In this document: positions 4,457-39,400 of the stretch, piece by piece
How positions within the stretch are numbered: position 1 is the stretch's first letter
Layout: every line of letters starts with the position of its first letter
Virus record (IMG/VR): IMGVR_UViG_3300001580_000018
Span: 1-64,000 of that record
Source of the DNA: an uncultured virus (IMG/VR IMGVR_UViG_3300001580_000018)
Taxonomy: Duplodnaviria; Heunggongvirae; Uroviricota; Caudoviricetes
Length of the DNA: 64,000 bases
Direction: 5' to 3' (one strand)
Program-made: the position numbers and the translations under genes
The notes under the pieces: generated by a model
Database searches by the model: none
Told to the model about the DNA's origin: nothing
The model's input: the letters and a program-made list of their open reading frames with translations, nothing else

Positions 4457-5293
4457 ATGAACAACAACCCATTGATGCAGTATTTCCGGCAGCCGGCTAT
4501 CTTCATAAGATTGCCCAGCCAGGGACGTTTTTATCCCGATGGCGCTATCAAGATCACGCCCAACGGCGAATACCCGGTACTGCCCATGACCACCATCGAC
4601 GAGATCACTTATCGCACACCAGATGCGCTGTTCAACGGTGAGGCAGTAATCTCCGTGATCCAGAGCTGTGTGCCTAACATCATCGATGCTTGGGCCATGC
4701 CAGCCATGGATATTGATACCGTGCTGATAGCCATACGCATCGCTACCTATGGTCATTCCATGGAGATCAACACCAAGTGTCCCAAATGCGAGCACGAAAG
4801 TGATTTTGATCTAGACCTACGCGGTGTATTGAACCAGATCACACCTGGTGATTACGAAAAATCCGTTAGAGACGGCGACATTGAAATATTTTTCCGACCC
4901 ATGGATTATCGGCAAATCAATGCCAATAATCTCGCGCAGTTTGAAGATCAGAAACTGTTGCTGTCCGTGGAAACCGGGGATCGTCCAGTGGAAGACAAGA
5001 TGGCACAACTCAGCGAAATATTGAAAAAAATAACCTCTGTGACCATACGTGCGCTGGCACAGAGCATCTCTGCTGTGAAAACACCGCAAGCCATGGTCAC
5101 TGATNCNNATCACATCACCGAATGGTTAGAAAATTGCGATCGCCGTGTGTTTGCATTGATACGTGATCACATCATCGCNACCAAACAANCNAGCGANATC
5201 AAACCCTTGACCATCAAGTGCCCGNCTTGNAGCCATGAGCATCAGCAGATCTTCACGCTTGACATGACGAGTTTTTTCGGGGGCGCCTCCTGA
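4457..5293 (+). CDS. baseplate hub assembly protein, T4 gp26-like
   Basis: IRLPSQG..Y, PMTTIDE, D..LIAIRIATYG and a CPKC zinc ribbon; ends ...TSFFGGAS. Confidence 0.8.
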   Translation: MNNNPLMQYFRQPAIFIRLPSQGRFYPDGAIKITPNGEYPVLPMTTIDEITYRTPDALFNGEAVISVIQSCVPNIIDAWAMPAMDIDTVLIAIRIATYGHSMEINTKCPKCEHESDFDLDLRGVLNQITPGDYEKSVRDGDIEIFFRPMDYRQINANNLAQFEDQKLLLSVETGDRPVEDKMAQLSEILKKITSVTIRALAQSISAVKTPQAMVTDXXHITEWLENCDRRVFALIRDHIIXTKQXSXIKPLTIKCPXXSHEHQQIFTLDMTSFFGGAS

Positions 5294-6012: not shown

Positions 6013-6449
6013 ACTATCAGTTTGCTAGGGTCGATCTCGCCCAGACCAACTACCCAGAATCCGTTCGCTGGGACTATCTCAGCAAGAGCGATTATATGAT
6101 TGATCGATGCCAGGAAATCTATCGAGCCTACTGCATCTACAAAAAATTTTCATCAGTGATGCCGTTGTTCGTCAGCAGATTCCGAGATCCCATGGCCGAT
6201 GTTATTGGGTACTGGGACGGCGGCAACATAGTAGCATTCAGTCTCATACGGAGATACGATGACAAAAACGCCATGTGTGACCAGTTTGCTTGGACCTATC
6301 ACAACCCTAAGTTGCGACTGGGTATTGAAACAATGAAAACAGAGTGTGCCATATACAAAGCCCGAGGATTCCGCTATCTCTACCTCGAGCAGGCACATCT
6401 GTACAAATCAGAGATAGAGGGATTTGAAATCTTAGGACCTATCACATAA
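6009..6449 (+). CDS. GNAT-fold protein resembling the C-terminal domain of Arg-tRNA protein transferase (ATE1)/bacterial Bpt
   Basis: WTYHNPKLRLGIETMKTECAIYKARGFRYLYL...YK...FEIL follows the ATE_C pattern (YDP...SLG....EI..A...G..Y.YLG...YK..F..LE.L) as recalled. Confidence 0.5.
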   Translation: MNYQFARVDLAQTNYPESVRWDYLSKSDYMIDRCQEIYRAYCIYKKFSSVMPLFVSRFRDPMADVIGYWDGGNIVAFSLIRRYDDKNAMCDQFAWTYHNPKLRLGIETMKTECAIYKARGFRYLYLEQAHLYKSEIEGFEILGPIT

Positions 6450-6784
6450 TGGCAGACTTATACACTATCTGGGCAGACAAAGAAGGTGACATCAGCGACT
6501 TAGACTGGGTCAACGGAATGAAAAGTTTCTTTGATCACTTGATCAGCGAAGGCAAGATGGAAAGTTATCGTATCACTCGTTGCAAGATGGGATTCCGCAG
6601 CATACCAGACATGCCTGAATGGATGATCATTATGGAATTCAAAAACATGGCTCAGATGGATGACGCATTTCGTCGTGTTGCTCCATTGGAAGGCGAACTT
6701 GAAACAAAACACAAAAGCTTCAATCAGTTTGTTGCTGGAAACATCCAACACGCACTTTTCCGTGATTGGCCTGATCAATTTTAA
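6449..6784 (+). CDS. hypothetical protein, DUF6614-like (dimeric alpha-beta barrel-like)
   Basis: Y.IW.D..., HL..EGK.ESYRITR.K.GF, MEF..MAQMD.AF and ALFRDWPD motifs. Confidence 0.55.
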   Translation: MADLYTIWADKEGDISDLDWVNGMKSFFDHLISEGKMESYRITRCKMGFRSIPDMPEWMIIMEFKNMAQMDDAFRRVAPLEGELETKHKSFNQFVAGNIQHALFRDWPDQF

Positions 6785-6796
6785 ATTGATTATTCG

Positions 6797-6868
6797 AGAT
6801 GTGCTGCGCACATCTATTGATTCGCTGCGCTCATCAATGTTTTTACAGTTAACGAACGAAGTGAGTTA
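6797..6868. repeat. cluster of three short palindromic hairpins with GNA-triloop cores
   Basis: AGATGTGC-TGC-GCACATCT (6797-6815), ATTGAT-TCGCTGCGCTC-ATCAAT (6816-6838), TAAC-GAACGAAGTGA-GTTA (6850-6868). Confidence 0.8.
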
Positions 6869-6869
6869 T

Positions 6870-7228
6870 CCAGTATCATCCAGATGCAATGGTCACACTA
6901 AGCCCGTTGCCGGGCCAAGAGTGCGGTAGCATCATCCGAGTGCTAATAGTCACACAGCGTTATGGCATTACAGAGGCGGTCGTCCGGTACCTCGAGCCAC
7001 GTCTTCAACGACGGCAATCACAACACATACGCTATCACATGCTGCGACCTGCAGGTTCTCCCTGCTCATTTTGCCTTTTAAATACTTTTCCAACAACCAA
7101 ACGTCAGGTCTTAGAGACGTCATCATCCTCGCGGGTAGTGGTTGAGTGCCCACTGCGGCGGTGGGTCTTCCTTCCCTGCGACACTGAGTCCAGGTCCTGG
7201 GCACACGATATTGGCCTGTGCGAGCCTT
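6870..7228 (-). ncRNA. putative large structured non-coding RNA of unknown class
   Basis: GC-richer intergenic stretch with no convincing ORF and many stems. GNRA loops (GCAA, GCGA) and G-U-rich helices read properly only on the minus strand. Boundaries are approximate. Confidence 0.6.
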
Positions 7229-7273
7229 AACTGCTTAGTTTGCCTTTGATGTAAGAAATATGTTTTATTGCGT

Positions 7274-7927
7274 TTAATGAGTCAAACAATTTAGTACATG
7301 ATTGAAAAATTTTTCATAAACTTCGTCAGATGTGGTTTTATCCAGATGCAATGTTTCATTAATAAAGCGATTTTTCAATAATTGAGATTCAAATAATTGT
7401 TTGTTGTCAACAGCATCAACAAACGACAATTTATCCAATTTAAAAATATTGGCTCTGTCCGATACCCACTGGTAAATTCCATTGCCTACAGTATAACATT
7501 CGTTGATCCCGGAAAAATCTAAATCTATAAAATCAATTATAGACTTGGTACCAAACGGATTTGTCACCCAGGCAGTGCAAATATAATGTGGATAGTTTGC
7601 TAGTTCGTTGCGCAAAATTTCGTGTTCTTTTAACAAAATTGATTTTAAAAAAGCAGTGAGATTCGAGGAAGGCCTCGTTAATCGAAATTCGTCAATCAGT
7701 CCCCGGCCAACTTCGGATAGCCCAACGCAAAATATCGGATCTATCTCTAATTCTGCCATATCTTTGGTAGCAACTTTGATGCGCCTGATGATATCAGTGT
7801 TGCTGGCACCCGGTACTGAATGATTGATAACAAAAAAATCCCGGAACAATTCACAATCGCTCGATGTTGCTCGGGCAGTGTGATGCGCCAACCAACTATC
7901 TCCGATTATATAAAAAACTTTTTTCAT
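7274..7927 (-). CDS. SGNH/GDSL hydrolase-like hypothetical protein
   Basis: IIGDSW block I, PGASN block II, C-terminal His; visibly AT-rich. Confidence 0.55.
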   Translation of the reverse strand: MKKVFYIIGDSWLAHHTARATSSDCELFRDFFVINHSVPGASNTDIIRRIKVATKDMAELEIDPIFCVGLSEVGRGLIDEFRLTRPSSNLTAFLKSILLKEHEILRNELANYPHYICTAWVTNPFGTKSIIDFIDLDFSGINECYTVGNGIYQWVSDRANIFKLDKLSFVDAVDNKQLFESQLLKNRFINETLHLDKTTSDEVYEKFFNHVLNCLTH

Positions 7928-7951: not shown

Positions 7952-8386
7952 TTATTTTGCAATAAATTTTCGAACATGCGACGCATGTATTCTACATTGT
8001 ATATGCCCATTGTAGTAGTCATCAGACTCTAACACACATCTTGCAAACTGCTCTCTGGCTTCGATATACGTGCATTCTGCTTTGCTACGACAATAGTAAA
8101 GTATTTCTCTAGTGAAATTTTCTGGACCCAGTTCTAGAACGTCATTTGAAAGTTCAGAACTTGATCCATAGTATGTTTGCCAATCCGAATCTATATGCTT
8201 TTTGATTTTTTTGCGCTTCTTTTTGCCGTTTTTGAGCTTTACTGTCTTATATGTCGTTTTGCTGAATTTTGCTAATTTTTTGCCAATATACATCCTGCCG
8301 GTGAGTTTATTCGTTATCAAATAAACGAAACCAACACAATCTTCGGGTAATTCTACTATTTCTTGGGATTCGTAAAGCCATGTCAT
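7952..8386 (-). CDS. compact GIY-YIG family nuclease
   Basis: GFVYLITN...YIGKK, YYGSS, FTREIL, E..EQF and YYN motifs, with a Lys-rich insert. Confidence 0.85.
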   Translation of the reverse strand: MTWLYESQEIVELPEDCVGFVYLITNKLTGRMYIGKKLAKFSKTTYKTVKLKNGKKKRKKIKKHIDSDWQTYYGSSSELSNDVLELGPENFTREILYYCRSKAECTYIEAREQFARCVLESDDYYNGHIQCRIHASHVRKFIAK

Positions 8387-8396
8387 TCATTGTTAA

Positions 8397-9425
8397 TTAC
8401 CATTCCGTGACATGGTCAAAATCTTTTAAGCGGCCAGGAGCGCATTTGGTGGTGCATTCCAAGCTATCAAAACGCAAGAAATCAGTTTTCCAGAATTCAT
8501 CACTGATGATGTCCGAAAAAGTGCGCTGTCGGAGGTTGAATTTAGTGCGTGCCAGTTCGTGCCATTGTTGATTGTGTTGGTAGCGATTGGCGGTCCAGCA
8601 GCAGGGATAGAACTCACCTTGGCTGTTTAAAAACACGCCTTTGTTGCCGATCAAGCAGATACCAGAGTATTGTTTTTGTTTTTCCAGAGTCTGTGCCCGT
8701 TGCCAAAAAACAGTTTTTATCTGATCACTGGGCCTCGATCGTGCTGTGATCGGATGCAGCATCCTCTCGAATCTATGTCCCGAGGCCACGAGATCCGGAT
8801 ATTCGGGGCACAGAGGATCTTGGGATCCATATGCTTCGGGGTAATGACTACCAAACTTGGTGCTCTTGGTCAGCTGGAAAAGATCCATGCCATGTTCTTC
8901 TGCCAGGCTTTGCATGTAGATCAAGTGATCTTGGTTGAATCGAAAAGCGATGGCAGCCCAGACACAGTAAGTAGATTGGTTTGCTGTTTTAAAGGTATCC
9001 ATGCCGCTGATGATGCTTCCCCAGTCGCAGTTGACACGATATTGTTGATTGCTGTCCTGGTCCCAACCATCGATGCTCCAGTTTATTTCATCGTGATGAT
9101 TTAACACACCGGCTAACTCTTGCCACCATGACTGGGGTTTGTAACTGCCGTTGGTGATCAGCACCAAGTTCATTGATGGATTCACAGATTTGATCCACTG
9201 GATGATGGCCAGTAGATCACGGCAATATATGGGATCTCCGTCATTGCCACAGAAAGTGATTTTGCGTATGGATTTTATAGTGTCCGCACCAATTTGATTT
9301 TGGAAAAATCCTAGATCGAGCTGTCGATTCAGTAGAGTCTCGGGAACCTCGGCTCGGGGGCATCTAGGACATTTCAAGGTACAGATGCTGCTGGGTTCAA
9401 TATGCCAGTGATCCCAGGCTAACAT
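8397..9425 (-). CDS. radical SAM protein with C-terminal SPASM/twitch-like domain
   Basis: CTLKCPRC, CGNDGDP, TNG and C-terminal C...PCCW...C..KC. Start reassigned to ATG 9425 (GAGGTG SD, overlaps the upstream stop). Confidence 0.9.
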   Translation of the reverse strand: MLAWDHWHIEPSSICTLKCPRCPRAEVPETLLNRQLDLGFFQNQIGADTIKSIRKITFCGNDGDPIYCRDLLAIIQWIKSVNPSMNLVLITNGSYKPQSWWQELAGVLNHHDEINWSIDGWDQDSNQQYRVNCDWGSIISGMDTFKTANQSTYCVWAAIAFRFNQDHLIYMQSLAEEHGMDLFQLTKSTKFGSHYPEAYGSQDPLCPEYPDLVASGHRFERMLHPITARSRPSDQIKTVFWQRAQTLEKQKQYSGICLIGNKGVFLNSQGEFYPCCWTANRYQHNQQWHELARTKFNLRQRTFSDIISDEFWKTDFLRFDSLECTTKCAPGRLKDFDHVTEW

Positions 9426-10288
9426 AATGCCACCTCTCGTTGCCATTGGTTTCGGAAGTTGGTGTCGTTGCCGATCACTGTGCAGGTATTCTGGCATACC
9501 GGATGTGGTGCATCGGTATTCCACGTCGGTCTCACTTGTTCGATGTCTGTGACGAACTCCTGTTGCCGGCTACCTAACCAACAACACGGACTCATCCGGC
9601 CTTGTGCATCGATGTAAATGCTCTGTTCCTGCAAGGCATGGCAACGGATCGTGCTACGATGTATCAGCGTCGGCTGCCAGTTCACAGGATGCTCTAGTCC
9701 CCCGATCATGGCACGTTTGCTGACTTTGGCACGGAACCAAGTGAATCCCATGCTGCGTGCCAGGCTTTCAGCAGCATCCACTTGATGCTGATTGTGTCGG
9801 TACACCAACATATCCCAGTGAGCCGACCCCCCGGCGTCGATAAACGCCTGGGCGTTTTTCATCAGAATCGGCCAATCAACACCACGTCGATAGATATGAT
9901 TGGTGTCAGCGAGCCCATCGATGCTGAATACCACATAATCTCTGGATTGATTTAATATGCCAGCCAATTCCTGCCACCATTCCTTGTTGCGCAACGCACC
10001 ATTGGTGTTCATGCCCAAGGTGATGTCGTGATTCACTGACCGAAACCATCGATATATGTCCAAGGTATGTTTGCCGGCCGCTGGATCGCCGTAGTTGCCA
10101 CACATAAACATCTTGTACAATCCAGCCACGGTCTCCAAAGACACCAAATCTTTTATTTGATCGACGGAAAGGTGGTGCTGTGATTTTTTATCAAACAATG
10201 TATCGGTCTCGCGGGCACACTGCGGACAGGCTGCCTGGCAGACATCCGTTGGCTCGAGATGTAGGACCTTTATTTCACGCAACATCAA
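9419..10288 (-). CDS. radical SAM protein with C-terminal SPASM/twitch-like domain
   Basis: CQAACPQC, CGNYGDP, NTNG, FSIDG, PCCW and C...C. Confidence 0.9.
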   Translation of the reverse strand: MMLREIKVLHLEPTDVCQAACPQCARETDTLFDKKSQHHLSVDQIKDLVSLETVAGLYKMFMCGNYGDPAAGKHTLDIYRWFRSVNHDITLGMNTNGALRNKEWWQELAGILNQSRDYVVFSIDGLADTNHIYRRGVDWPILMKNAQAFIDAGGSAHWDMLVYRHNQHQVDAAESLARSMGFTWFRAKVSKRAMIGGLEHPVNWQPTLIHRSTIRCHALQEQSIYIDAQGRMSPCCWLGSRQQEFVTDIEQVRPTWNTDAPHPVCQNTCTVIGNDTNFRNQWQREVALC

Positions 10289-26900: not shown

Positions 26901-27470
26901 GCTTATCAAAATTATATTAAAGATACCACAGGAACAGTTCCAGAACCACAACGGCCAACAATCGCAGAACTCAGTACAGCATATTCTGCATTAAATGATT
27001 ATAAGATGATCTCGGACAATCTTGTATTGAACAGCGTGACATTCAAACCATTGTTTGGAGCCAAGGCCGCGCCAGAACTGCGTGCGACAATCAAAGTGGT
27101 GCGCGAACCTCGCAGCACAGCGTCGATATCTGAGATCAAGAGCCAAGTGGTCGCTAACATGAATGCCTATTTTACCATAGATAAATGGGATTTTGGTGAT
27201 AGCTTTTTCTTCTCTGAACTGGCTGCTTATCTCCATGAAAGAATGGGATCGATAATATCTTCTGTAGTACTGGTACCATTGAATCCTCTTAAAACATTCG
27301 GTGATCTTTACGAGATACGTTCTGCACCCAATGAGATTTTCGTCAATGGTGCCACGGTAGCAGATGTTGAAGTGATTGACGCATTGACACAAAGCAACAT
27401 ACGTAGCCAGACTTCGGTAACTGGTTTGTATCCTACACAAAACACACTCAGTCAGACAGGTGAATATTGA
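23982..27470 (+). CDS. baseplate wedge protein, gp6-like
   Basis: DFETLRKS, ENFLDTAERRDSV.RLA..ISY.PKR, FGDG.F, ETIEEIK.RAP..Y.TQNRMV..EDY. Confidence 0.9.
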   Translation: MMPKTTRQTAIFGVEDWKRFYQTYREADFQSYDFETLRKSFVDYLRLYYPETFNDYIESSEFIALLDVMAFMGQALAFRNDLNARENFLDTAERRDSVVRLANLISYTPKRNQAAQGFLKVFSVSTTENITDYNGINLSNVTVDWNDPTNPNWLEQFTQIINAALVDSQKFGRPANRQDILGIETSEYAVNLVPGFLPVIPYTASVDGMTMPFEATSSTSLGRDYVYEPAPRPSGLFNILYRNDRLGFGSDNTGFFFLFKQGVLQNQDFNLAEAVPNRTVNINIEGCNNEDHWLYKLDDIGSIESEWKYVESIYAAAVEQLAPDQRKLYSITSRANDQITLTFGDGVFAETPVGFFRAYVRASNGLEYIVNPEEMQAITLPVSYVSRFGRVETITFTCGITEPISNAEARETIEEIKQRAPARYYTQNRMVNGEDYNNFPFTRYNSIIKSKAVARSSVGTSRYIDLTDITGKYSSTNIFSSDGVLYRQNVLPSFEFDWINRNEIVDVLVNSVEPLLTSRSLTQFYYQNYRSSPYRPDLKIINLSWQQSTRLVNETTGFFYSGSPTSPQPLGIYSSNNAKYITQGSLVKFEPPAGFFFDAQNRLVAGVPTRADEKMVIWATISAVVLDGTNNGLGNLPDGSGPVALNNFVPAGAEAKQVIPKFVTDLPAALEQSIIQQIELFRNFGLGYDNIGRVTGTPGTWYLITSTNLAADSEFSLINAGNTTGANLDASWLIQFVTNGDSYVVTSRGLDYYFASVIQTRFTFDGLEEVYDSKTGRVINDFIKILKTNSRPDSSEPLPGDVTVDIIAQPVESDGYVNDYQVVVSYTDSDADGIADDPDFFDSLVAPSINSPSKLVFFQKTTDFDDLERYLPVASGVINSLYATKDSIELVKAEYPSGQIFYATTETKFYELTVTLVNGVINRVLTERTDFITRVGRQDLYFQYRHNSPLTNVIDPGITNIIDVYVVTQGYYTAYQNYIKDTTGTVPEPQRPTIAELSTAYSALNDYKMISDNLVLNSVTFKPLFGAKAAPELRATIKVVREPRSTASISEIKSQVVANMNAYFTIDKWDFGDSFFFSELAAYLHERMGSIISSVVLVPLNPLKTFGDLYEIRSAPNEIFVNGATVADVEVIDALTQSNIRSQTSVTGLYPTQNTLSQTGEY

Positions 27471-30400
27471 TGGCCAGCCGACGTAGAACCGTAGATTTAT
27501 TACCACAAATTTTCCGCACAGAAACCAATCAACAGTTTCTGGCAGCCACACTCGATCAGCTCACACAAGAACCATCTTTGGTCAAAACACAAGGATATGT
27601 GGGTCGTCGCGTGGGCCCTGGTGTCAATCCTGCAGATAATTATGTAGTAGAACCTACTGCTTCTCGTAGTGACTATCAACTTGAGCCTGGCGTAGTATTT
27701 TTTAAACCAGAAACCACCACCCCAGAAGATGCCATCACGCATCCAGGCATGATTGATGCTTTGGATCTACAAGGCGCCAACACCACACGTCAAGATAGAC
27801 TGTTCCAGAGCCAGTATTATGTCTGGGATCCATTCTGCGATCTTGACAAGTTTACCAATTACAGCCAATATTATTGGTTACCCGAGGGCCCTGAAGCAGT
27901 AGACGTCAACGCCACAGATGTGCCTTTGACGGATAATTGGAATGTCACACGAACCAATTCTGGATATCAACTATCAGGGGAAGCAGGAAATAATCCTACC
28001 ATTACACTGGTACGCGGCGGATCTTATACGTTCCAAATATCTCAAGGCGGTGGCGCTAGATTTTGGATTCAGTCCAACCCCGGGGTCGATGGCCGATTGC
28101 CCAGTGCTCCTAACATCTCTAGCCGAGACGTCCTAGGGGTCATCAACAACGGTGCAGATGCTGGAACTATTACTTTCAACGTACCATCAAAAACAGCGCA
28201 GGATTTCTTTTATACTCTTGTTCCCATTGGTGTGATTCCCGGCCGTGCGCCCAATACTGCAGGTACAGTAGATCTCATCACTGATCTCAAATTCAATGAG
28301 ATCAACAATGTCTATGTGGATGAGTTTTTAAGATTAAATCCGCTGGGAATCGACGGAATCACTAATTTAAAAGATCGTACACTGGTATTCACTAATCGCA
28401 TCGCAGATTCCCAGGACGGCGGCTGGCAAATAAACACGCAATTTGATCCATTGTTGAAGTCCCCAACCAACAATGGACGTCCTGGTAGTTTTGACACCAC
28501 CACGTTTGATGAAACCATCGACATAGTCGATCCCAACACCCGTTACGGAGTGTGGCAGATACGTTATATCAATGACGATACTGGCAATCCGTATATGCGT
28601 CTGGATCCGGTGTTGAGTGTCAATTTACTGGAAAAATGGAGAGTGTTGTTTGGTAACCAATGGAGCAATACTCAGTGGTATCGCAACGCATCGGGATTTC
28701 CTGAAAAGATTCCTCTTTTGACTGCGGCCTTGGATGAACTATGGTATCAGGACAGTCTGAATCCAGAATTATTTGGTCGCATACGCCTAGTAGATTCTGC
28801 CGGACTAAATCCTGTGCGTATCGACGAGATCATTGGTGCAAAAAATTACACCAGCCCCAACGGAGTGGTGTTCACCAATGGATTAAAAGTACAATTCCGA
28901 GGATTCACTGAACCGGCTGAGTTCCAAGATCAAGAATATTATGTTGAAGGAGTCGGCACCGGGTTTGGTGTTGATGCCAGAGTGGGATTCGTTGATGGAG
29001 AAGCATATTTTGGACCCTGGCATCTTTTTGACAACCAGAGACTGACCGGTGCGATCCACAGTGAAACTGAATTCCAACAATACATCTATGATACTGTAGC
29101 AGAAAGTTTGGCCAATCGGGGAGCAGGATATCCTGAAAATGCGCCTTTGCCTTCAGAAGGAGTTCTAGGAGCCACGTCGGGCAATGGCATACGTTTAATA
29201 CCGGTGCGAGAATTAGTTACCCCCGAAACATATACCGAAAGCCTGTCAGAACCCTATGACTCATTGCCTTACGATTTTGGAAACTATGATGGCACATTAA
29301 ACGCTCCGTTGGTACCAGATTATATCACGATTAATCGTGCCAGCCGAGATCGCAATGCCTGGAGTCGGAGCAATCGTTGGTTCCACGTGGACGTTATCCG
29401 GTACGCCGCCGAATTAAACAACACCATACCAGTGTTTGATAACTCTCAGCGGGGTAAGCGTCCTATCATTGAATTTCGACCTGATCTAAGATTATTTAAT
29501 TTTGGAACAGAAGCCAAGTTACCAGTCAACATAATCGACTTTGCTGCCACAGATGCTTTTAGTAACATCAACGGACAGCTAGGATACAGCATCGACGGTT
29601 ATACATTCATTGACGGCAGTCGAGTGATTTTCGCAGGAGACCGAGATCCAGATGTGCGCAATCGTGTCTATGAGGTCAGTTTTATTGATCCCGACGGCGA
29701 TCCAGGTTCAGCGAAAATCATCAATCTCACGCCAATCTTTGATGCCCGTGCGCTGATCGATCAAACCGTGGTGTGCCTCAGTGGCAATACACAACAAGGT
29801 AAAAGTTATTGGTTTAACGGATCTGATTGGGTGTTGGCACAGCAAAAAATTGGTGTGAATCAAGCACCGTTGTTTGATGTTTACGATGCCAATGGCATCA
29901 GTTTCAGCGATCTTTCAGTGTATCCCAGCTCAACTTTTGCTGGTAGTCGTTTGTTTGGGTACGCAGCCGGGGGAACCGGAAGGTCAGATGATGTTTTAGG
30001 ATTCGCATTGAAATACCTTAACATCAACAACGTGGGTGATATCGTTTTTGAAAATTATCTCTACACAGATACATTCTTGTATGTAAGAAACAGCGTGAGT
30101 TCGCAAGAGAGTATCGGCACAGGATTTGTAAGACAATATCTGGATCGGACATTGTTTAGCCGCGAGATTGGCTGGCAAGATTCTATAGTAGAAAATCGCA
30201 GCCGCCAGGTATTTCGTTTCATATACGACGGAAGCCCGTTGATCCTAGATGTACCGGTTGATCTCGATTCGCCGTCTGCACCTGTGCAGATATTCCAAGG
30301 CACAGAATATATCAATCCAGATCAGTACACCACAGAAGTCAACGGTAACAATACGATCATCACCCTCAACGGCGGTGCCAACATTGGTACAGTATTGGAA

Positions 30401-33400
30401 GTACAGGTCATCAGCGATCAAGCCAGTGCTGTGGCATTTTATCAAGTTCCGTTGAACCTTGAAAATAACCCTCTCAACGAGAACAGCAATAGCTTTACCT
30501 TGGGTACTATACGTGCCCAATACGAGACTATTGGACAAAATCTGTCAGATATCCAAGGTCCTATCATTGGAGCCAACAACACACGAGATCTTGGAAACAT
30601 CCTCCGTTATGGTACCAAGATCGTCCAGAATTCTGCGCCATTGGCTCTGGCCGGTCCTTTCTTGAGAGACCGTCGATACGAAGTCATTGATGCGCTGAGA
30701 TTCAACAGCCAAGAATATGAAAAGTTCAAGGCTTTGTTGATGGATCTGGCCAGTCAAGGGGATTTCATCAGCAATACGCCCACACAGATTTTAGATGCTG
30801 TGCTGGCTGAGATCGCGCTTGGTAAGACCAATCAGAGTCCATTCTATTGGGGCGATATGTTGCCCGCAGGACAAAATTATTCTTCCACGTTCTATACTGT
30901 GAGTCTGATCTCAACAGATACATTTGACACAAGACAGACCTACGATTACGATGCCAGCAATTATCTTGGATTGAATGTCTATGTCAATGGAACTATACAG
31001 ATACGAGGTTACGATTACATCGCCAACAGCGGTAGCCGTACCGTGACATTCTTGCGAGATCTTGTAGTTGGAGATCAAATCGAATTCCGAGAATTCTCTG
31101 CTACCTACGGCACCTATGTGCCTAACACTCCTAGCAAAATGGGACTGTATCCTAAATTCTGTCCGGCGATCTACATTGATGAAGCATATGTGAATCCCAC
31201 TCAAGTGATTCGCGGACACGATGGGTCGATCACTGTGGCATTTGGCGATTTTCGAGATCAAGTGTTGTTGGAGTTTGAAATTCGAGTTTTCAATAACATC
31301 AAGATATCTACGCCCGTGCCCATTTCTGCTGCAGAAGTGATCCCGGGGCAGTTTCGCGAGACAGATTATACCTTGGCTGAAATCAATGAAATACTGTCTA
31401 GTGATTTCTTGACTTGGGCCGGATGGAACAAACTAGATTATGCACCACAGACATATCTACCCAACGACCCAATCACATACAACTATGGCCAAAGCAGTAA
31501 CAAGCTCAATGGCCAACCATTGTTGGGCGCATGGCGTGGCATCTACAATTATTTCTATGATACCATAACTCCCAATACCACACCCTGGGAAATGTTGGGA
31601 TTCAGCGAACGTCCCGATTGGTGGGAGAACTACTATGGTCCCGCGCCTTATACTTCGGGTAACTTGGTGTTGTGGGAAGATTTATCACAAGGTCGTGTGC
31701 GCGACCCCAACGGAGAATATTTCTTACCGCAATATGCACGTCCTGGGTTGACCGATGTTATCCCTTCCGATAGCGAAGGAGAATTATTGGCACCCATCGA
31801 CAGCACTGTAGGAAATTATGATGGCACCAGTTTCCGACGCAGTTGGGTGTTTGGCGACGACGGTCCTGTAGAAAATGTCTGGCGTACCAGCTCTAGCTGG
31901 CCTTTCGCCGTGATGAGATTATTGGCCCTGACCAAACCTGCGAAATTCTTCAGCTTATTCGCCGATCGTGATCGGTATGTGTATCAGCCCGATCTAGCAC
32001 AATATCTATGGGATGGGCGTTATCGATTGGACGCCAAGCAATTGTCACCCATTTATGGCAACGGTGTCAGCAAGGCCAGTTACATCAACTGGATTATCGA
32101 TTACAATCGCCAATTGGGAGTCAACAGCACACAGGGGCTGACCGATAAACTGTCAAACATCGGTATACACCTTTGCTGGAGATTGGCTGGATTCTCTGAC
32201 AAAAAATATCTGCGTCTTTACACTGAAAGATCCACCCCCAACAGCAGTAACGCAGGATTGTTGCTGCCCGATGAAAGCTATCAGTTATTGCTGTACAAGA
32301 ACCAACCATTTGAGGAGATTACCTACAGCTCGGTAATCGTGCAACTCACTGACACTGGTTGGCAAGTGTTTGGCTACAGCACCGCTGAACCTTATTTTGA
32401 AATCTTGACCAGCCGACCCAATGGCACTACCATAGTGATCGAAGCTGGCCAAGGAGCAGACAGCACCGCGGTGCGGATCGCCACAGAGCACAGTGACAAT
32501 GTCACACAGATACCCTACGGTTATACTTTTAAAAATCGTACCGCGGTCTGCGATTTCTTGTACAGCTATGGATTATTGCTAGAAAGACAAGGATTCGTCT
32601 TTGAAAATCAAGAAAACGGTTATGTCCTCAACTGGCTGCAGATGTGCCAAGAGTTCCTGTATTGGAGCAATCAAGGATGGTCGCCTGGTGCTATCATCAA
32701 TCTGAACCCAGGTGCCACTCGTATATCTGTGTCTAGACCACAAGCTGTAGTTGACAGCCTAGCTGATCCGAGACCAAAAAATCTCATATTGAATCAGAAT
32801 CGTCAAGCCATACCCCCTGGACAGTTGGTGCTGGAGAGATTGGGCAATGTTTTCCGCGCCACCAGTTTCAATCAGAATACTATCAATTATCTCAACGTCA
32901 GTTTCACGGCCTACGAACACATGGTGGTGCTGGATAATCGCAGCATATTCAATGATCTCATATATGATCCACGCACCGGCGCCCGTCAGAGTCGTATCTT
33001 GGTATCCGGAGTGATTTCTGGCGATTGGGACGGCACGGTAAATGCTCCTGGCTTTGTTCTCAACCAAGACAACATACAGGAATGGATACCAAATCAAGCC
33101 TATGCCAAGGGCGAAATCGTGTTGTTCAAGGGCGAGTATTGGTCAGCGAGTACTATCATACAACCCAGTCGAGAGTTTAATTATACTCTATGGATCAAGA
33201 GTGACTATGACGAAATACAAAAAGGACTCTTGCCCAATGCTTCCAATGCCAGCGATGAATTAGCCAGCGCATATTCGGTCTACAATGCTTCGTTGCAAAA
33301 TGAAACTGATTTGTTTAGCTATGGATTGATTGGATTCCGTCCTCGAGATTACATGACTGCATTAAATCTTGATGACGTCAGTCAAGTACAACTTTATCAA

Positions 33401-36400
33401 CAATTCCTGGGCAGCAAAGGAACAGTCCGTGCTGCTGAGATATTCAGTTTTGCAAATCTTGGAAAAGAGATCGCCGAGTACAACATCTATGAATACTGGG
33501 CGTTGCTCCGAGGAAGCTATGGAGCAACAGCCAATAGAAATTATTTTGAATTATTGTTAGATGCAGCGAAATTGCGCAGTGATCCATCATTGGTGCAGAT
33601 AGTATTACCGCAGGAAACTTCTCAAGCAGATCAGTTGATATTGTTAGAAAATATCTATAAGACCAGCGATCCGTTGATCACCACAGATATTTTGCCCACC
33701 GTGATGTCCCTGGTCAGCGACACGGGCCTGCCCACTGCTGGATATGTCAATCTCGAAGATGTGGACTTTACTGTGTTTGATCTCGAAGATTTTGGCACCA
33801 CACAGAATACGTTGAATCAATCAGTGACTGAAATCGGTGTGGGCAGTACCATCTGGGCAGCCAAGGTCAACAATCATGATTGGGGAGTTTTCCGTGTCGA
33901 AACCGTGCCCGGAGATATCATATTAGTATCAGACAATCTTGACGGTAGATCATTGGTAGAGTTTACTGTGCCACACGGATTGAACGTCAATGATATATTG
34001 ATCATAAGATTCTTCAACGATGCGGTCAATGGCACATATCGTGTGTTATCGGTGCCTTCATTGAATCAAGTCTTGATTGATTATTCGTTCGTTGGACGCC
34101 AGACATCTATCGTTGGTACAGGCGTGGGATTTACGTTACAGAATGCACGGGTATCGCAAGCGTCCGATATTGTGAATTTGCCATATTCTAAGTCTTTGTT
34201 ACCTGGTGATCGTGCATGGGTCGACAATAATAACAACGGACAATGGATGGTGTTGCAGAAACAACAACCATTTTCTGCACGACAAGATGCTCCGCTTGCT
34301 ACTCCTGTGACAGGAAGTCAGTATGGTACCAGCATCACACAAAGCGTAAACAATCTCGCAGCTCTTGTAGGTGCACCCGGGTATGGTATCGGCGGAGCGG
34401 TCTATACCTATATCAAGGATACCACAAATCAATATGCAGAAAATATTATACTGGAACTGGGCACCACAGGTGCAGCCGGGTACGGTAATGCTGCAGATTG
34501 GGGAGATCAAACCTGGGCAGTGGTCGGGGCCAGCGCCAGCAGATCTTCACAGGGATATGCTGTAGTCATCAATCACCCTCCCTCTAGCAATGTTTTCACC
34601 CAGTATCAACTGTTGGTTGACAGCACAGGATCTGCAGCAGACGAATTTGGTCACAGCGTGGCCATCAGCAGGGATGAACGTTGGATATATGTGGGCGCTC
34701 CAGGTGCCAATCGAGTATATGGATATGGGTTGATCGAGGTAGCATTGCAGTCGATAGAATATCAAAGCAATGGTTCCACATTGATTTATTCGTTCAATGG
34801 CTCGATAGAGATCAACAATGTAGAGCAATTGGCAGTGATAGTCAACGGTATACCACAGACTCGTATCACCGATTATAATGTCGATCTGACCAACAAACAA
34901 ATTACTTTTGTGTCTGCACCAGCCGCTGGTGCAGAAATCATCATGGCTCGCCGTATCGATAAATTGATCCCATCAACCGGCGCCTTTACCTATTCTGTGA
35001 TAGATATCTATGGTGCCGATAGTACAACAAGTCTGGCAGTTTATGTCAATGATGTGTTACAGAGACCTGGAATCGATTACACGCTGGTGGGAACAACATT
35101 GACATTTGTCTCGCCACCTTCTGCAGGTGTGCAAATCAGAGTAAGAACCGGCTCCTATTATCGCAAAGTTTTTGAAATTAATGGATCCACGCCCGGCCTG
35201 CCTGCATTGGATTCTGGCGCTAGATTTGGACATTCGGTGACCACAACCACCGATGGTCGTTTGATCGCAGTGGGTGCGCCCGGTCAAGGTAGCCAAGGTC
35301 GTGTGTTTATATTTGATCGTGCGGTGAAGAGATTCCAAGTTGGAACCACGCTATTTCCAGTTGGAACCACAGAGTTTCCAACACAGGAAAGTTTAAACTT
35401 ATCTCCAATCAATGTCACTCTCAACGGTCAATTCTTGGTCAACAATCAAGGCAATGTCAACGGGGATTACACTGTCAACGATGACAGCTCTAATACCGTT
35501 GTTCTCAATAATGCTCCGGCAGCGGGCGACATCGTTGAAGTAGAGACCAATCAGATCAGTTTTGTCCAGGAAATACAGGCCAACATTCCCTCGGCTGGCG
35601 CAGAATTTGGCTCTAGTTTGGATCAGTGTGCCAGCAACTGCAGTCTTTACATTGGTTCACCGAGAGATAGCCAAAATTTAATCGAATCCGGTAGCGTAGA
35701 TTATCAGATCAATCAAGCAAGAGTCTACGGCAGTCTCACAGGTGTCATCCAAAATCCGACATTGACTCCGGGCGATTTCTTACGAGTTAACAATTACTAC
35801 GTTAAGGTAACTGGCACTACTGTAGAAAGTCTGGCACAAGATATCATTGATGCTGTCATACCCAACGTGACAGCCGCAGTTGACAACGGCAAATTAATGA
35901 TTTTCGTCAAAAATCAAAGCACAGCCACACCCGGAAATAGGTTGTCGGTGCTGCCCGGCACAGGATCAGTGTTTTTTGATGTGGGGTTTGAACCATTGGC
36001 TTGGGTACAGACTTTTGCTGCTCCAGTCGAACAAGCCTATGCGCATTTTGGGTCCAGCGTTTATATCAACGAAACATCACAAAATCTAGTGATCGGCGCA
36101 CCGGATGCCACTGCTATAGAATCTTGCACATTTGATGTTTATACGCTGCCGCAGTATTTGGTAGCAGAATTAGGCATTTCCGGTCAGATAGTGCAAACCA
36201 ACACTTACACAGGCGATGGCATAACAGATTACTTTGCCTATGATATCAATAATTCCGCTGGCAAGATAGTGGTCGAAGTCGACGGTGTTGTACAAAATTA
36301 TATCAAAGGATCAACTGGATCTTATTATATAGATCGTAATCCGCGCCCGTGGAATTCAACCACAATATACAATATTGGTGATTTTATAGATTTTAACGGA

Positions 36401-39400
36401 CCAATCTATCGGGCTCTTCAAACAGTCCCGGCTGGGTTCTCGCCGGTTGATGAAATTAATCCGTTGTTGCCAGTTTATTGGGCCAGTGCGACTTTTCCGC
36501 AAGTGTATGCTACAGATATAGCCTATGTAAATTTCACGGCGATACCGTCTGCTGGGTCAACGATAAATGTTTATCAAATATCTGATTCCTATTTGCTGAA
36601 TTCTAATAGCCCAGAAGATATTTCGTCGACCACATTTGATGCTTCCAGCCTTAATTTTCTAGATCCAGTACCTAACAGTGGTGCAGTTTATACCTTTGAT
36701 TTGCTATCTGCAGTCAATCCGTCAATTACCAATCCTTCAAAATTCGTATTTGGTCAGCAGATACTTCCAACCAATCTTGCACCTTATGATAGATTTGGTG
36801 CGGCAGTCAACTACACCACCGGTACCTTGTTGTGTGGTGCCCCTGGCTACAACGACGATAGTTCAGTGACTGACTCTGGACGGGTAGTGGAGTTTATCAA
36901 TCAAGGACGTCAACCCGCTTGGACGATAACACGCATTCAGAAATCCGTGGTCGACATCAACTGTTTAAACTCTGTGTTCATGTATGATCGATTCGCATCC
37001 AGCACCAAACAGTATTTTGACTTCATCGATCCGTTGCAAGGACGGTTGTTGGGCGCAGTCCGCCAAAATCTAGATTACATTGGCGCTATAGATCCTGCCG
37101 CATACAATGTGGGCTCCGTCAACAACTATGGTCAACGCTGGGCTGAAGAACGTGTGGGAGAGATGTGGTGGGATACTGCCAACGCCAGATTCCTTGATCC
37201 CAATCAAGACGACATCGTTTATGCTAGCCGTCGTTGGGCACAACTATTCCCGGGCAGCACGATTGATGTATATCAATGGATATCGAGTTCAGTTCCTCCG
37301 GCACAATATACTGGCCCTGGACAAGTCCGGGATACTGAAAGTTATGTGTCAGTGACCGGCGTCAATGATCAAGGGATCATCGAACCTGTTTATTACTTTT
37401 GGGTGCGCGGAATACGCACAGTAAATCGTGCTGCCCGCAAGACTTTGGGCGCCGAAACAGTAGCGAGATACATCGAATCTCCCAAGTCCAGCGGTATCGC
37501 TTATATCGCCCCGATCAACGCCAGCACGGTCGCTATCTATAATGGATTGCCTTATATCTCTGCCGAAGATACAGTATTACACATAGAGTACGATCAGACT
37601 CCCAACGATGATGCTGTACACGTCGAATACAATCTTGTGACACAAAATCGAGCTGATGGTTTCCTGATTCCTACCAGTTATCGCAAATGGTTAGATAGTT
37701 TCTCGGGCTACGACACCGTGGGCAATCCCGTGCCAGATCCGTTCTTGCCCGAGAGTGAACGCTATGGTATAAATTTCCGTCCTCGCCAGAGCATGTTTGC
37801 CAATAGATTCTTGGCCCTGCAAAATTACCTGCAGCAGGCCAACTCTGTGATGAAAGATCTGCCCATACGCGAGATACGCAGTTTTCCATTGTTGGAAAGC
37901 AGCGAACCGATCCCCACATCGTCTTCGGAGGAATGGAATTTACAAGTAGCTAACTTGGCAGAACTCAGCTATCAGGATCTCGCTATAGTGCCAGCTACTT
38001 CAATCCAAGCAGTATCTTGGTCCGGGGCTTCGTCGTCAACTATACAAGTTTCTAATCCAAGCGTGTTACAAGTTGGACAACTTGTGATTGGGGAGAACAT
38101 ACCCAGCAACACATTTATCGGATCCATATCTGGTAATTTAGTATCATTGATAAACTCTGCAGGAATATCAGTATCTACAACTGGCTCCAGTACAACTTCT
38201 CAGCAGATAACATTCCAAGGATATCGTTATCTAGTGCTTAATGATAGCAGCAATAATGGACTTTGGACAATATACGAAGTGCAATCTGGCACGCTACCGG
38301 GTTCTAAGGGTTTGGGCCTGATACGAGTGCAAAATTACGACACTCCCAAATATTGGCAGTACATTGATTGGTACCTCCCTGGATATAATCCCAGCACGAT
38401 ACTGGTGGCCGAAGTTCCTAATTATTCTGCACTGGAGACCATCACAGTGCCCGATGGCAGCAGCGTCAAAGTCACTGCCAACGCACAGGGATTCTGGGAG
38501 ATCTATCGACTCACGGCTGGTACTTGGGTTCGTGTGGCCTTGCAATCGGGCACCGTAGAGATACTGCCAGAAATCTGGGATTATTCAATTGGTCGATTTG
38601 GATTCGACGTTGAAGTGTTTGACGCACAATATTTTGACCAAGAACCTATAACCGAAACACGTCGCATCTTACAGAGCCTCAATGAAGAAATTTTCATCGA
38701 TGATTTGGCCATCGAGCGCAATCGACTGCTGATCCTGACATTTAATTACATCCTGGGCGAGCAGATCGCTCCGTTGTGGTTGACCAAGACTTCGCTGATC
38801 GATGTGGACCATGTGATCCGTAATCTCGAGCCCTTCCAGATCTATCGTTTAGATAATCAGGACTTTGTGCTGAATTACATCCAGGAAGTCAAGCCTTATC
38901 ACACACAGATCCGTGAATTCAATCTCATATACCAAGGATCCGATGAATATCAGGGTACGGTCACAGACTTTGATGTGCCAGCTTATTGGAATGCACAAGA
39001 AAATCTATTTGTAAGTCCAGTGCTGGATGATGTTGGCAATCTCAGCACTACTTCTAGCACACCTAGTACCAGTGAAATCTGGCAAACACTACCATGGAGC
39101 CAATGGTATCAAAATTATCTGCTGGGGATCGAAAGTGTGACCATCGTTGACGGTGGTTCCGGATATACCGTTCCGCCCGAAGTTGTGATTACAGGCGAGT
39201 GTGAACGACCAGCAGTGGCGATCGCTAACATCAACAGTGCAGGTCGGGTCTCGAGCATCGACGTCGTTGATCCAGGATTGGGATATCGTACCACTGCTAT
39301 TATCACTCTAGAGGGCGGCAATGGCATAGGTGCTCGGGCAGTGGCCAACATGGGCAATAGTCTGGTACGAGACATCAAGACCACGATTAAGTATGATCGC

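Follow-up and report, generated by a model that had tools for sequence, protein, structure and literature searches.

An RNA of about 450 nt predicted in uncultured T4-like phages extends the Polynucleobacter-1 motif and carries two copies of one variable word

The window studied here is a stretch of 64 kb from a virus record of 74 kb, whose completeness is put at 21%. It appears to hold on its minus strand, from about position 7250 to a predicted end at 6797, the gene of a structured, non-coding RNA of about 450 nt. The molecule folds as an RNA, belongs to the Polynucleobacter-1 family (Rfam RF01718) and extends beyond the Rfam model of that family, which spans only the 5′ third, the 3′ two thirds being uncatalogued. 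Polynucleobacter-1, which entered Rfam in 2010 as an orphan motif of 141 nt and was taken for a gene leader, is now the 5′ third of a much longer RNA. The same architecture recurs in integrative elements of Burkholderiales and, among uncultured T4-like phages, in hundreds of contigs. Our preferred reading, to which we give a probability of roughly 0.4, is that of a stand-alone RNA acting in trans, a scaffold that presents two copies of one recognition word. Its fold consists of the Polynucleobacter-1 motif and a doubly pseudoknotted core with two near-identical modules, which flank a hairpin (H9) and each end in a purine-rich word of 7 nt, and two stable hairpins probably close the transcript. 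This rigid fold would be the scaffold. The two words would be the specificity or binding element, engaging two copies of one short partner or one partner twice, and this partner would most likely be a nucleic-acid sequence that varies between phage or host lineages. The ends, the strand and the abundance of the RNA are those that we infer from the sequence alone. Among sequencing runs, the full matches were four DNA runs of one sample, perhaps the source of this DNA, with no RNA run beside them; reads of one possibly-RNA run and of three DNA runs yielded only pieces of the contig, those of the possibly-RNA run leaving the RNA region uncovered, which weighs neither for nor against expression.

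The source is an uncultured T4-like phage, and the T4-type genes of the window include those for a baseplate protein, a gp46/SbcC-like ATPase and radical-SAM enzymes. An earlier note on this DNA had drawn attention to the largest non-coding gap, put at about 490 bp, and had described it as GC-richer than its flanks. Both points were borne out, since the gap (6785-7273, 489 bp) is the widest interval between long ORFs of the window and its G+C content is 0.505-0.53 (6800-7199), as against 0.395-0.405 in the left flank and 0.305-0.315 in the right flank. It lies between two convergent genes, at 6449-6784 (plus strand, DUF6614) and 7274-7927 (minus strand), and the leftward operon closes with the RNA at this convergent junction. 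In most relatives a GIY-YIG nuclease gene abuts the RNA, and the 5′ leader in the window (7227-7250) is a remnant of the usual 3′ end of that gene. Just upstream of the RNA the minus strand has a sigma-70-like site, TTGACT (7285) and CATATT (7257) with a 17-nt spacer, which is a match to the consensus only. The features of the locus, all on the minus strand and in the order of transcription, are as follows.

7952-8386, minus strand: Lys-rich protein of 144 aa with a GIY-YIG domain only (Pfam PF19835, PHROG 447)
7274-7927, minus strand: ORF of 217 aa between the nuclease gene and the RNA, with no Pfam or PHROG match
7227-7250, minus strand: predicted 5′ leader of the RNA, placed by columns 1-21 of the phage alignment and by comparison of upstream sequences
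7091-7226, minus strand: 5′ domain, the Polynucleobacter-1 motif, placed by cmscan and by helices that are paired in relatives
7201-7221, minus strand: P1, helix of the 5′ domain
7175-7194, minus strand: P2, helix of the 5′ domain
7149-7165, minus strand: P3, helix of the 5′ domain
7094-7144, minus strand: P4, helix of the 5′ domain with two inner hairpins
7051-7065, minus strand: hairpin H5, seen by eye in the alignment, its stem differing in every relative
7018-7047, minus strand: H6, long G-U-rich hairpin with changes on both sides in 10 of 10 pairs
7029-7035 with 6954-6960, minus strand: pseudoknot PK-B, formed by the H6 loop (7 pairs, 5 changing on both sides, 96.4% paired)
6963-7012, minus strand: pseudoknotted core (H7, H8 and PK-A)
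7008-7012 with 6979-6983, minus strand: pseudoknot PK-A, formed with the H8 loop
6996-6999 with 6963-6966, minus strand: H7, which encloses H8
6989-6992 with 6974-6977, minus strand: H8, enclosed by H7
6931-6955, minus strand: module 1, with box (6949-6955), spacer, CUC and word 1 (6931-6937)
6898-6918, minus strand: H9, between the two modules, with a GCAA loop in the window (8 pairs, 4 changing on both sides, 86.2% paired)
6875-6898, minus strand: module 2, with the same box as module 1 (6892-6898), spacer, UCU and word 2 (6875-6881)
6817-6837, minus strand: terminal hairpin T1, a short capped stem with tandem G-A pairs
6797-6815, minus strand: terminal hairpin T2, with a GCA loop

The membership of the 5′ domain rests on a cmscan of the whole window against Rfam 15, in which positions 7091-7226 of the minus strand matched RF01718 over model positions 1-141 of 141, with 101.5 bits (gathering score 37) and an E-value of 8.4e-21. 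This was the sole match of the 64 kb at gathering thresholds, and nothing else appeared between 6700 and 7350 even at E ≤ 1. The window shares with Polynucleobacter-1 the four-helix layout and the conserved junction, and the helices of this domain are 95.9-100% paired in the 28 aligned phage sequences, with changes on both sides in 16 of their 31 pairs. No tRNA, tmRNA, RNase P, group I or II intron or small ribozyme was matched in Rfam 15, in agreement with the earlier note, in which the RNA was not recognised as any of the first four, and ARAGORN returned no tRNA or tmRNA gene. A ribozyme and a replication pre-primer RNA had been suggested as possible natures of the RNA; we found nothing in favour of either, and no ribozyme or intron family of Rfam was matched. 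The claim of novelty has to be divided: it fails for the 5′ 136 nt, which are RF01718, and it stands for the 3′ two thirds. Conservation and covariation run about 220 nt beyond the RF01718 part, to about 6875, and in 28 of 51 viral loci the blastn similarity to the window likewise passes beyond it, mostly to 6930 and in many loci as far as 6872. In a distant-mode blastn search of 6785-7273 against 50,697 phage records there was no match.

Polynucleobacter-1 was described in 2010 from 16 representatives (Weinberg et al., PMC2864571), and Table 1 of that paper assigns it to Burkholderiales and to fresh water or estuary, a lineage that our own genome scan also finds. The catalogued motif has 141 nt, whereas the RNA has about 450 nt in phages and bacteria alike. 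Apart from PMC2864571, our literature search found no paper naming Polynucleobacter-1, and no description of the RNA was found in those parts of the literature on large structured phage RNAs that were available. One survey (PMC10690425) is stated to have retained candidates of 29-151 nt and to have dropped overlaps with Rfam, and its supplements may list a fragment of the 3′ domain.

For the fold as a whole, we aligned 28 window-like phage sequences out of 42 distinct segments, the 14 left out being groups B and C, which were handled separately, and three segments cut by contig ends. The resulting model has 12 helices, two pseudoknots and 69 pairs (1925 cells). Over the 69 pairs 96.1% of the cells are paired, and shifting the 3′ partners by 1-3 columns lowers this to 33-42%, a comparison that favours the model because the structure was partly derived from the same sequences. 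Changes on both sides are seen in 42 of the 69 pairs, as against 12-17 after such a shift. Owing to the relatedness of the aligned sequences, the covarying cells are more numerous than the independent events behind them. On any of five measures none of 500 shuffles matched the observed values, and a blind helix scan of the alignment retrieved the same set of helices. Conservation and covariation in related phages, which the earlier note had named as a check on the RNA, were found.

Half of the helices (six of 12, namely H6, PK-B, H7, H8, PK-A and H9) lie beyond the Rfam model. In PK-B, which the blind scan retrieved independently, the loop of H6 contacts a strand 70 nt downstream. The core helices PK-A, H7 and H8 are 95.5-100% paired and change on both sides in 3 of 5 pairs (PK-A) and in 3 of 4 and 1 of 4 pairs (the other two helices). 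In H9 some rows of the alignment are off by one column. H5 was excluded from the pair count because MAFFT misaligns it.

The stems that the earlier note had picked out by eye fared well, as all eight are minus-strand helices of the comparative model and seven of the eight are kept by compensating changes. The pairing GCACA/TGTGC (7201-7221) is P1, CCCAC/GTGGG (7149-7165) is P3, the junction closed by CAACCA/TGGTTG (7094-7144) is P4, and CC-GCGA-GG (7127-7134) is a small hairpin within P4. The 13-bp G-U-rich helix (7017-7048) corresponds to H6, in which all 10 counted pairs change on both sides, GAGG/CCTC (6973-6993) to H8 and GCCCG-GCAA-CGGGC (6902-6915) to the core of H9. The eighth, GCAGG-GAGAA-CCTGC (7051-7065), is by eye a hairpin in all relatives, with a different sequence in each, and was left uncounted. 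Selection on the minus strand at the RNA level, which had been argued from GNRA loops and G-U pairs, is upheld by the Rfam match and by all of the covariation, both being on that strand. The weak point of the RNA case is the folding energy of the single sequence, which is not distinctive: the minus strand gave -153.5 kcal/mol (z = -1.35) and 9 of 100 shuffles were as good, and the plus strand gave z = -0.34. A long-range pair between the leader and a module box, predicted by RNAalifold, is invariant in the window-like phages and has a different register in others, and it is not claimed here.

A protein-coding reading of the gap was rejected. It would have to rely on a 113-aa ORF (6889-7230, plus strand) or a 78-aa ORF (6968-7204, minus strand), and in neither case is the frame conserved or a 3-base periodicity seen. 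Among the 28 relatives the variability of the columns by position modulo 3 is 0.208, 0.222 and 0.217, with no coding signal, 369 of 415 gap runs are not a multiple of 3, and the longest open frame has 49-121 codons and shifts in strand and frame from one relative to another.

The most unusual part of the RNA is its pair of modules, each consisting of a conserved box, a spacer of 6-12 nt, CUC or UCU, and the purine-rich 7-nt word. In the window word 1 and word 2 are the same at all 7 nt. Under a strict anchor rule the words were identical over 6-8 nt in 45 of 65 sequences, the rule failing in the other 20, which were mostly of groups B and C with different flanks, and under a second rule they were identical over 7 nt in 46 of 47 captured family RNAs. 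By eye, groups B and C also have twin words. Nine word types occur among the window-like phages, each shared within an RNA and differing between RNAs, and the bacterial RNAs have other word types, again paired. The two words change together: at word positions 1, 2, 5 and 7 changes are mirrored in both copies, and between otherwise similar RNAs, about 70-75% identical to the window, the words vary at up to three positions. They are separated by 47-63 nt, depending on the relative. Covariation of two words by identity is a rare signature, one that suggests a recognition element open to testing.

In regards to a partner for the words, none that is conserved was found inside the RNA by mutual information and a helix scan of the alignment or by RNAfold, and none of the 42 distinct sequences had a perfect Watson-Crick or G-U complement at a consistent place from -600 to +1000 nt. 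In the window the 7-mer occurs 18 times where 16 matches are expected, which is no enrichment, and the predicted mean unpaired probabilities are unremarkable (0.46 for word 1, 0.63 for word 2 and 0.42 overall). Three candidates were tried and dropped. The only recurrent candidate partner, the G/U-rich 3′ strand of P4, wobble-pairs with any purine word and fails for two word types. A helix between the first and second units is predicted for GGAU-type words only and is broken by AGAU- and GCAU-type words. Lastly, a small ORF running from word 1 to word 2 is in frame only in the window, the spacing in relatives falling in all three phases and several words lacking AUG. Where the words start with GGAU, the RNAfold prediction joins the first bases of word 1 to those that precede word 2, and in such relatives the identity of the words could in part serve a local helix.

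Given the fast turnover of the words among similar RNAs, a nucleic-acid partner fits better than a protein; differences at up to three positions exceed the pace at which the specificity of a protein usually shifts. An unlikely alternative is that the RNA is a protein scaffold or decoy, whose twin words would be two sites for a dimeric or cooperative RNA-binding protein of phage or host that is thereby sequestered or assembled. A rigid fold with two identical, purine-rich sites at a distance of about 50-60 nt would fit it, as would the failure of the 7-mer count in the window and of the complement search from -600 to +1000 nt to reveal a nucleic-acid partner; yet no conserved candidate protein is common to the phage and bacterial loci. 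Two identical sites would equally suit a dimeric protein.

We hold it most improbable that the RNA is a template, with the words as realignment sites for a polymerase that repeatedly copies the 50-60 nt between them. Template jumping does require identity, rather than complementarity, of the flanking words, and we found no other explanation in cis for the identity. However, RVT_1 (PF00078) had no match in the record of the window or in five large related phage records, one of them judged complete, in a search that gave matches in 3 of 14 control genomes, and no reverse transcriptase is annotated among the bacterial neighbours. Moreover, the segment between the words contains a stable hairpin and a conserved box, and it is 47-63 nt long. 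A template between identical short sequences is the point of likeness to telomerase RNA and the non-coding RNAs of defence reverse transcriptases, as presented in the part of a preprint that was available (bioRxiv 10.64898/2026.06.29.735271), and this likeness is countered by the lack of a reverse transcriptase in the six phage records.

In order to follow the family, we searched IMG/VR contigs with a degenerate pattern from the most conserved junction of the RF01718 motif, which gave 51 loci, in 49 of which the motif was present by eye, the other two (L045 and L046) being chance matches. A covariance model of the 3′ domain alone (R1) scores 131.3 bits on the window, and it also matches group-B phages as well as 7 phage loci with a different or diverged 5′ domain. 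The 3′ domain thus stands behind other 5′ domains too, so that of the two parts the one with the twin words is shared more widely. A second-round model (R2) found 3 of 3 group C phage loci (E about 1e-7) and 10 of 25 bacterial loci, the latter with marginal E-values (0.0015-0.46) and each right behind the 5′ domain on the same strand. It found none of 25 unrelated control loci, none of four cultured-phage loci and none of three phage loci without the RNA in reach (L148, L149 and L202). At least 7 of the 15 bacterial loci that it missed are truncated or cut by a contig end. No bacterial locus was matched by a phage-only nhmmer profile of the 3′ domain.

The bacterial loci come from a scan of one genome per species, in which 25 of 85 pattern matches had the motif by profile. 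The carriers are mostly Limnohabitans, Polynucleobacter and other Burkholderiales, a few records having other MAG labels, and the RNA copies sit in integrative elements, mobile islands of bacteria that are likely hosts of the phages. Tyrosine recombinases are among the neighbours: 5 loci have one of 410 aa upstream, and 8 of 25 have a shorter one downstream, of about 194 aa and with a Phage_integrase domain; in the other 17 no such recombinase lies within 3 kb. Further neighbours are a DUF6876 gene and an AAA ATPase. Directly upstream, 23 of the 25 loci have a divergent DUF6641 gene, and the next gene on the same strand is at least about 450 nt away. A TAAATA box is conserved about 55 nt before the RNA in all 17 bacterial loci looked at.

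These bacterial loci bear on whether the RNA has a role of its own. In most phage loci its start coincides with the stop codon of the upstream gene or lies only a few bases from it, and it may for that reason be made only as a 3′ UTR; in the window it terminates the leftward operon at a convergent junction, with two stable hairpins behind. A cis-acting 3′ UTR of the nuclease operon, which would stabilise or terminate the upstream mRNA or control translation of the GIY-YIG protein, nevertheless has a low probability in our view. In bacteria the upstream gene is divergent in 23 of 25 loci, which rules out a 3′ UTR there, and the conserved TAAATA box before it points the same way. Two pseudoknots and twin words would also far exceed the needs of a stabiliser, and genes are inserted between the nuclease and the RNA in the window and, judged by the 5′ domain, in 6 of 80 related loci.

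Of 50 phage loci, 41 have a gene for a GIY-YIG protein of 142-146 aa immediately upstream and co-oriented, and 7 have one for a 172-aa PD-(D/E)XK nuclease (PF24608, E 1e-27) in its place, the upstream sequence being absent in the remaining 2. The earlier note had placed a structured RNA downstream of, and co-oriented with, a compact GIY-YIG gene, which is correct, a 217-aa ORF that is unique among the 50 phage loci lying between the two in the window. The GIY-YIG protein of the window matches PF19835 with an E-value of 6.7e-32 over residues 3-129 of 144, and no solved structure matched it by sequence below E 0.75. Relatives of the enzyme occur in 582 viral contigs of IMG/VR, and among the best 80 of these (67-87% identity) the RNA follows the enzyme gene on the same strand in 77, which makes it a common RNA. 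In the remaining three another ORF follows and then the fetched flank ends. In 6 of the 80 an additional distance of about 0.85-1 kb separates the 5′ domain from the gene, as in the window, and the same offset from the enzyme gene is seen, by the 3′ domain only, in four loci (L172-L175). More distant relatives of the enzyme were found in 474 records of cultured T4-like phages, mostly cyanophages, and no RNA lies behind the enzyme gene in the four examined (Methylophilales phage Melnitz-3, Acidovorax phage ACP17, Variovorax phage V45v66 and Synechococcus phage S-SSM7).

The RNA is independent of any one neighbouring gene. It occurs without the GIY-YIG gene in 7 phage and 25 bacterial loci, and the enzyme without the RNA in 4 of 4 cultured phages; co-occurrence with one enzyme family is hence not obligate, and the earlier suggestion of an RNP partner of the nuclease is not sustained. 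A related idea is that the RNA is the subunit or guide of whichever DNA enzyme adjoins it, the words giving target recognition to enzymes that have only a catalytic domain, these being the GIY-YIG (144 aa), PD-(D/E)XK (172 aa) and bacterial tyrosine recombinase (about 194 aa) proteins. It is attractive in that the GIY-YIG protein is almost only catalytic domain, in 7 loci it is replaced by another small nuclease, a Phage_integrase-domain protein is downstream in 8 of 25 bacterial loci, the lineage-specific words look like those of a guide, and the RNA is behind the enzyme in most of the best 80 relatives. We nonetheless consider it improbable: the enzyme family is widespread without the RNA in cultured phages, 17 of 25 bacterial loci are without the recombinase within 3 kb, and neither the 7-mer count in the window nor the search from -600 to +1000 nt found a target for the word. 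Close kinship among the 80 linked loci means that shared descent explains the linkage of RNA and enzyme. We take the GIY-YIG gene as a neighbour of long standing and do not claim it as part of the machinery of the RNA. A broader version, in which the twin 7-8-nt words are a programmable specificity element on a scaffold common to T4-like phages and Burkholderiales elements, and either steer it to two copies of a target sequence or act as realignment sites for repeated copying, is to us a rather doubtful proposition, and such an RNA might work with the small catalytic-domain-only DNA enzymes beside it. If true, programmable words would make this a new class of sequence-addressed RNA.

On the other side of the RNA, T1 and T2 (6797-6837) are probably its 3′ end. 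Behind word 2 there is a small hairpin, often with a UUCG loop, followed by a variable linker and the two conserved hairpins, and by eye both phage and bacterial loci have a similar pair of hairpins behind the RNA, though not at a fixed distance. The single-sequence fold of the window forms both, and no U-run follows T1/T2 on the minus strand. On the plus strand, T1 with its T-run resembles a terminator of the convergent DUF6614 gene.

Table 1 of PMC2864571 scores Polynucleobacter-1 as RNA 'y' and cis-reg 'y', both in the sense of probable, and as 'switch ?'. The cis-reg label is a tentative annotation by its authors and no structural criterion. That the RNA is a 5′ leader or riboswitch of the following gene, as this scoring suggests, could draw on roughly half of the phage loci, where an ORF on the same strand begins about 60-100 nt past the twin words, but we regard it as quite improbable. 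Those ORFs fall in at least eight unrelated clusters with no Pfam family, and an ATAAATA box lies 5-12 nt before their start codons; this box and the two terminal hairpins separate the RNA from them, and together these features argue against a leader function. In the window the RNA is not in a 5′ UTR, as no same-strand gene follows and the next one (6449-6784, plus strand) converges on it. In other loci the downstream genes are likewise mutually unrelated or convergent, and in bacteria the next gene is at least about 450 nt off.

As for known systems, GOLLD and ROOL are RNAs of phages and prophages, and to our knowledge twin variable words are not a described feature of either. The RNA resembles them, as they are described in the available part of a preprint (bioRxiv 10.1101/2024.12.08.627333), in being large, non-coding, rich in pseudoknots and derived from comparative genomics; however, it is smaller, and it has no Rfam 15 match at E ≤ 1 to GOLLD or ROOL, nor was HEARO or OLE matched. 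It joins the few large bacterial and phage RNAs that await a function, and its words offer a concrete experimental handle.

The omega RNAs of IscB and TnpB and the bridge RNA of IS110 are structured scaffolds that mobile elements encode beside a DNA enzyme, and their short single-stranded segments, specific to the lineage, are complementary to known targets. The RNA has likewise a scaffold and lineage-specific segments, a likeness by description only, but no IscB, TnpB or IS110-type gene is among the annotated proteins of two neighbourhood surveys. Twin identity is not known to be the rule in those systems, whereas the RNA here has two identical segments and no target was found for them in the searches above.

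The 144-aa neighbour, finally, shares its catalytic domain (PF19835) with the SegE-type GIY-YIG endonucleases of T4. Free-standing homing endonucleases carry a DNA-binding tail, for which the 144-aa protein has no room. Its 67-87% identity in the best 80 of 582 contigs and its presence in the 474 cultured-phage records indicate that, unlike a sporadic homing gene, it is conserved in the manner of a core gene.

The RNA gene of the window seems to have been separated from the GIY-YIG nuclease gene that lies upstream of it (7952-8386, minus strand) by an insertion. The approximately 25 bases preceding the RNA (7226-7250) can still be read as the usual GIY-YIG C-terminal codons and stop, whereas the GIY-YIG gene that the window carries 0.7 kb further upstream has a different 3′ end (7952-7975). 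Since the usual gene end abuts the RNA and the gene itself ends otherwise, the 217-aa ORF between them (7274-7927, minus strand) appears to be an insertion in the nuclease gene's 3′ end. This ORF has no Pfam or PHROG matches and bears a GDS-like motif at its N-terminal. Other ORFs occupy the same insertion spot in the relatives L172 and L202, with a similar N-terminal motif.

At the other end of the RNA, past the terminal hairpin T2 (6797-6815 in the window), phage loci (L005, L010, L016, L019, L031-L037, L043 and L044) carry variable ORFs of no known family on the same strand as the RNA, each with an ATAAATA box just 5-12 nt ahead of its ATG. Because this gap is too short to accommodate a ribosome-binding site, the sequences suggest that these ORFs are expressed from leaderless late mRNAs.

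In each of the 17 bacterial RNA genes inspected (loci within L054-L131), a [A/C/T]TAAATA box stands about 55 nt ahead of the conserved leader of the RNA and is itself preceded by a conserved TTTGGTT-like block; no -35 hexamer was found at the usual spacing from the box in any of these 17 genes. Late promoters of T4-type phages consist of a -10 element only, and it is this type of promoter that the bacterial box resembles in sequence. If it does act as a T4-type late promoter, infection by a phage would activate the copy of the RNA gene residing in a bacterial integrative element (island copy).

In Limnohabitans and related genomes, the RNA gene is truncated at L062, L063 and L122, where agreement with full copies ends at three different internal points, with unrelated sequence beyond; one genome holds both the truncated L062 and a full copy, L095. 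In two sets of phages, L157, L186, L195 and L199 on the one hand and L193 and L210-L217 on the other, the nuclease gene and the 3′ twin-word domain (the part with two identical 7-nt words) are as in the window, but the window-like 5′-domain profile finds no match; by eye, the 5′ domain is either a diverged version, in which the second helix (P2) is replaced, or an unrelated fold.

Other features of the window are as follows:
4457-5293: T4-baseplate-like gene, with unknown bases (N) at about 5100-5260 that give X in the translation.
27467-41995, plus strand: one uninterrupted open reading frame, 4842 codons long.
8397-9524 and 9419-10288, minus strand: tandem pair of radical-SAM proteins, of which the first also has a SPASM domain; as listed, their ORFs share about 100 nt.
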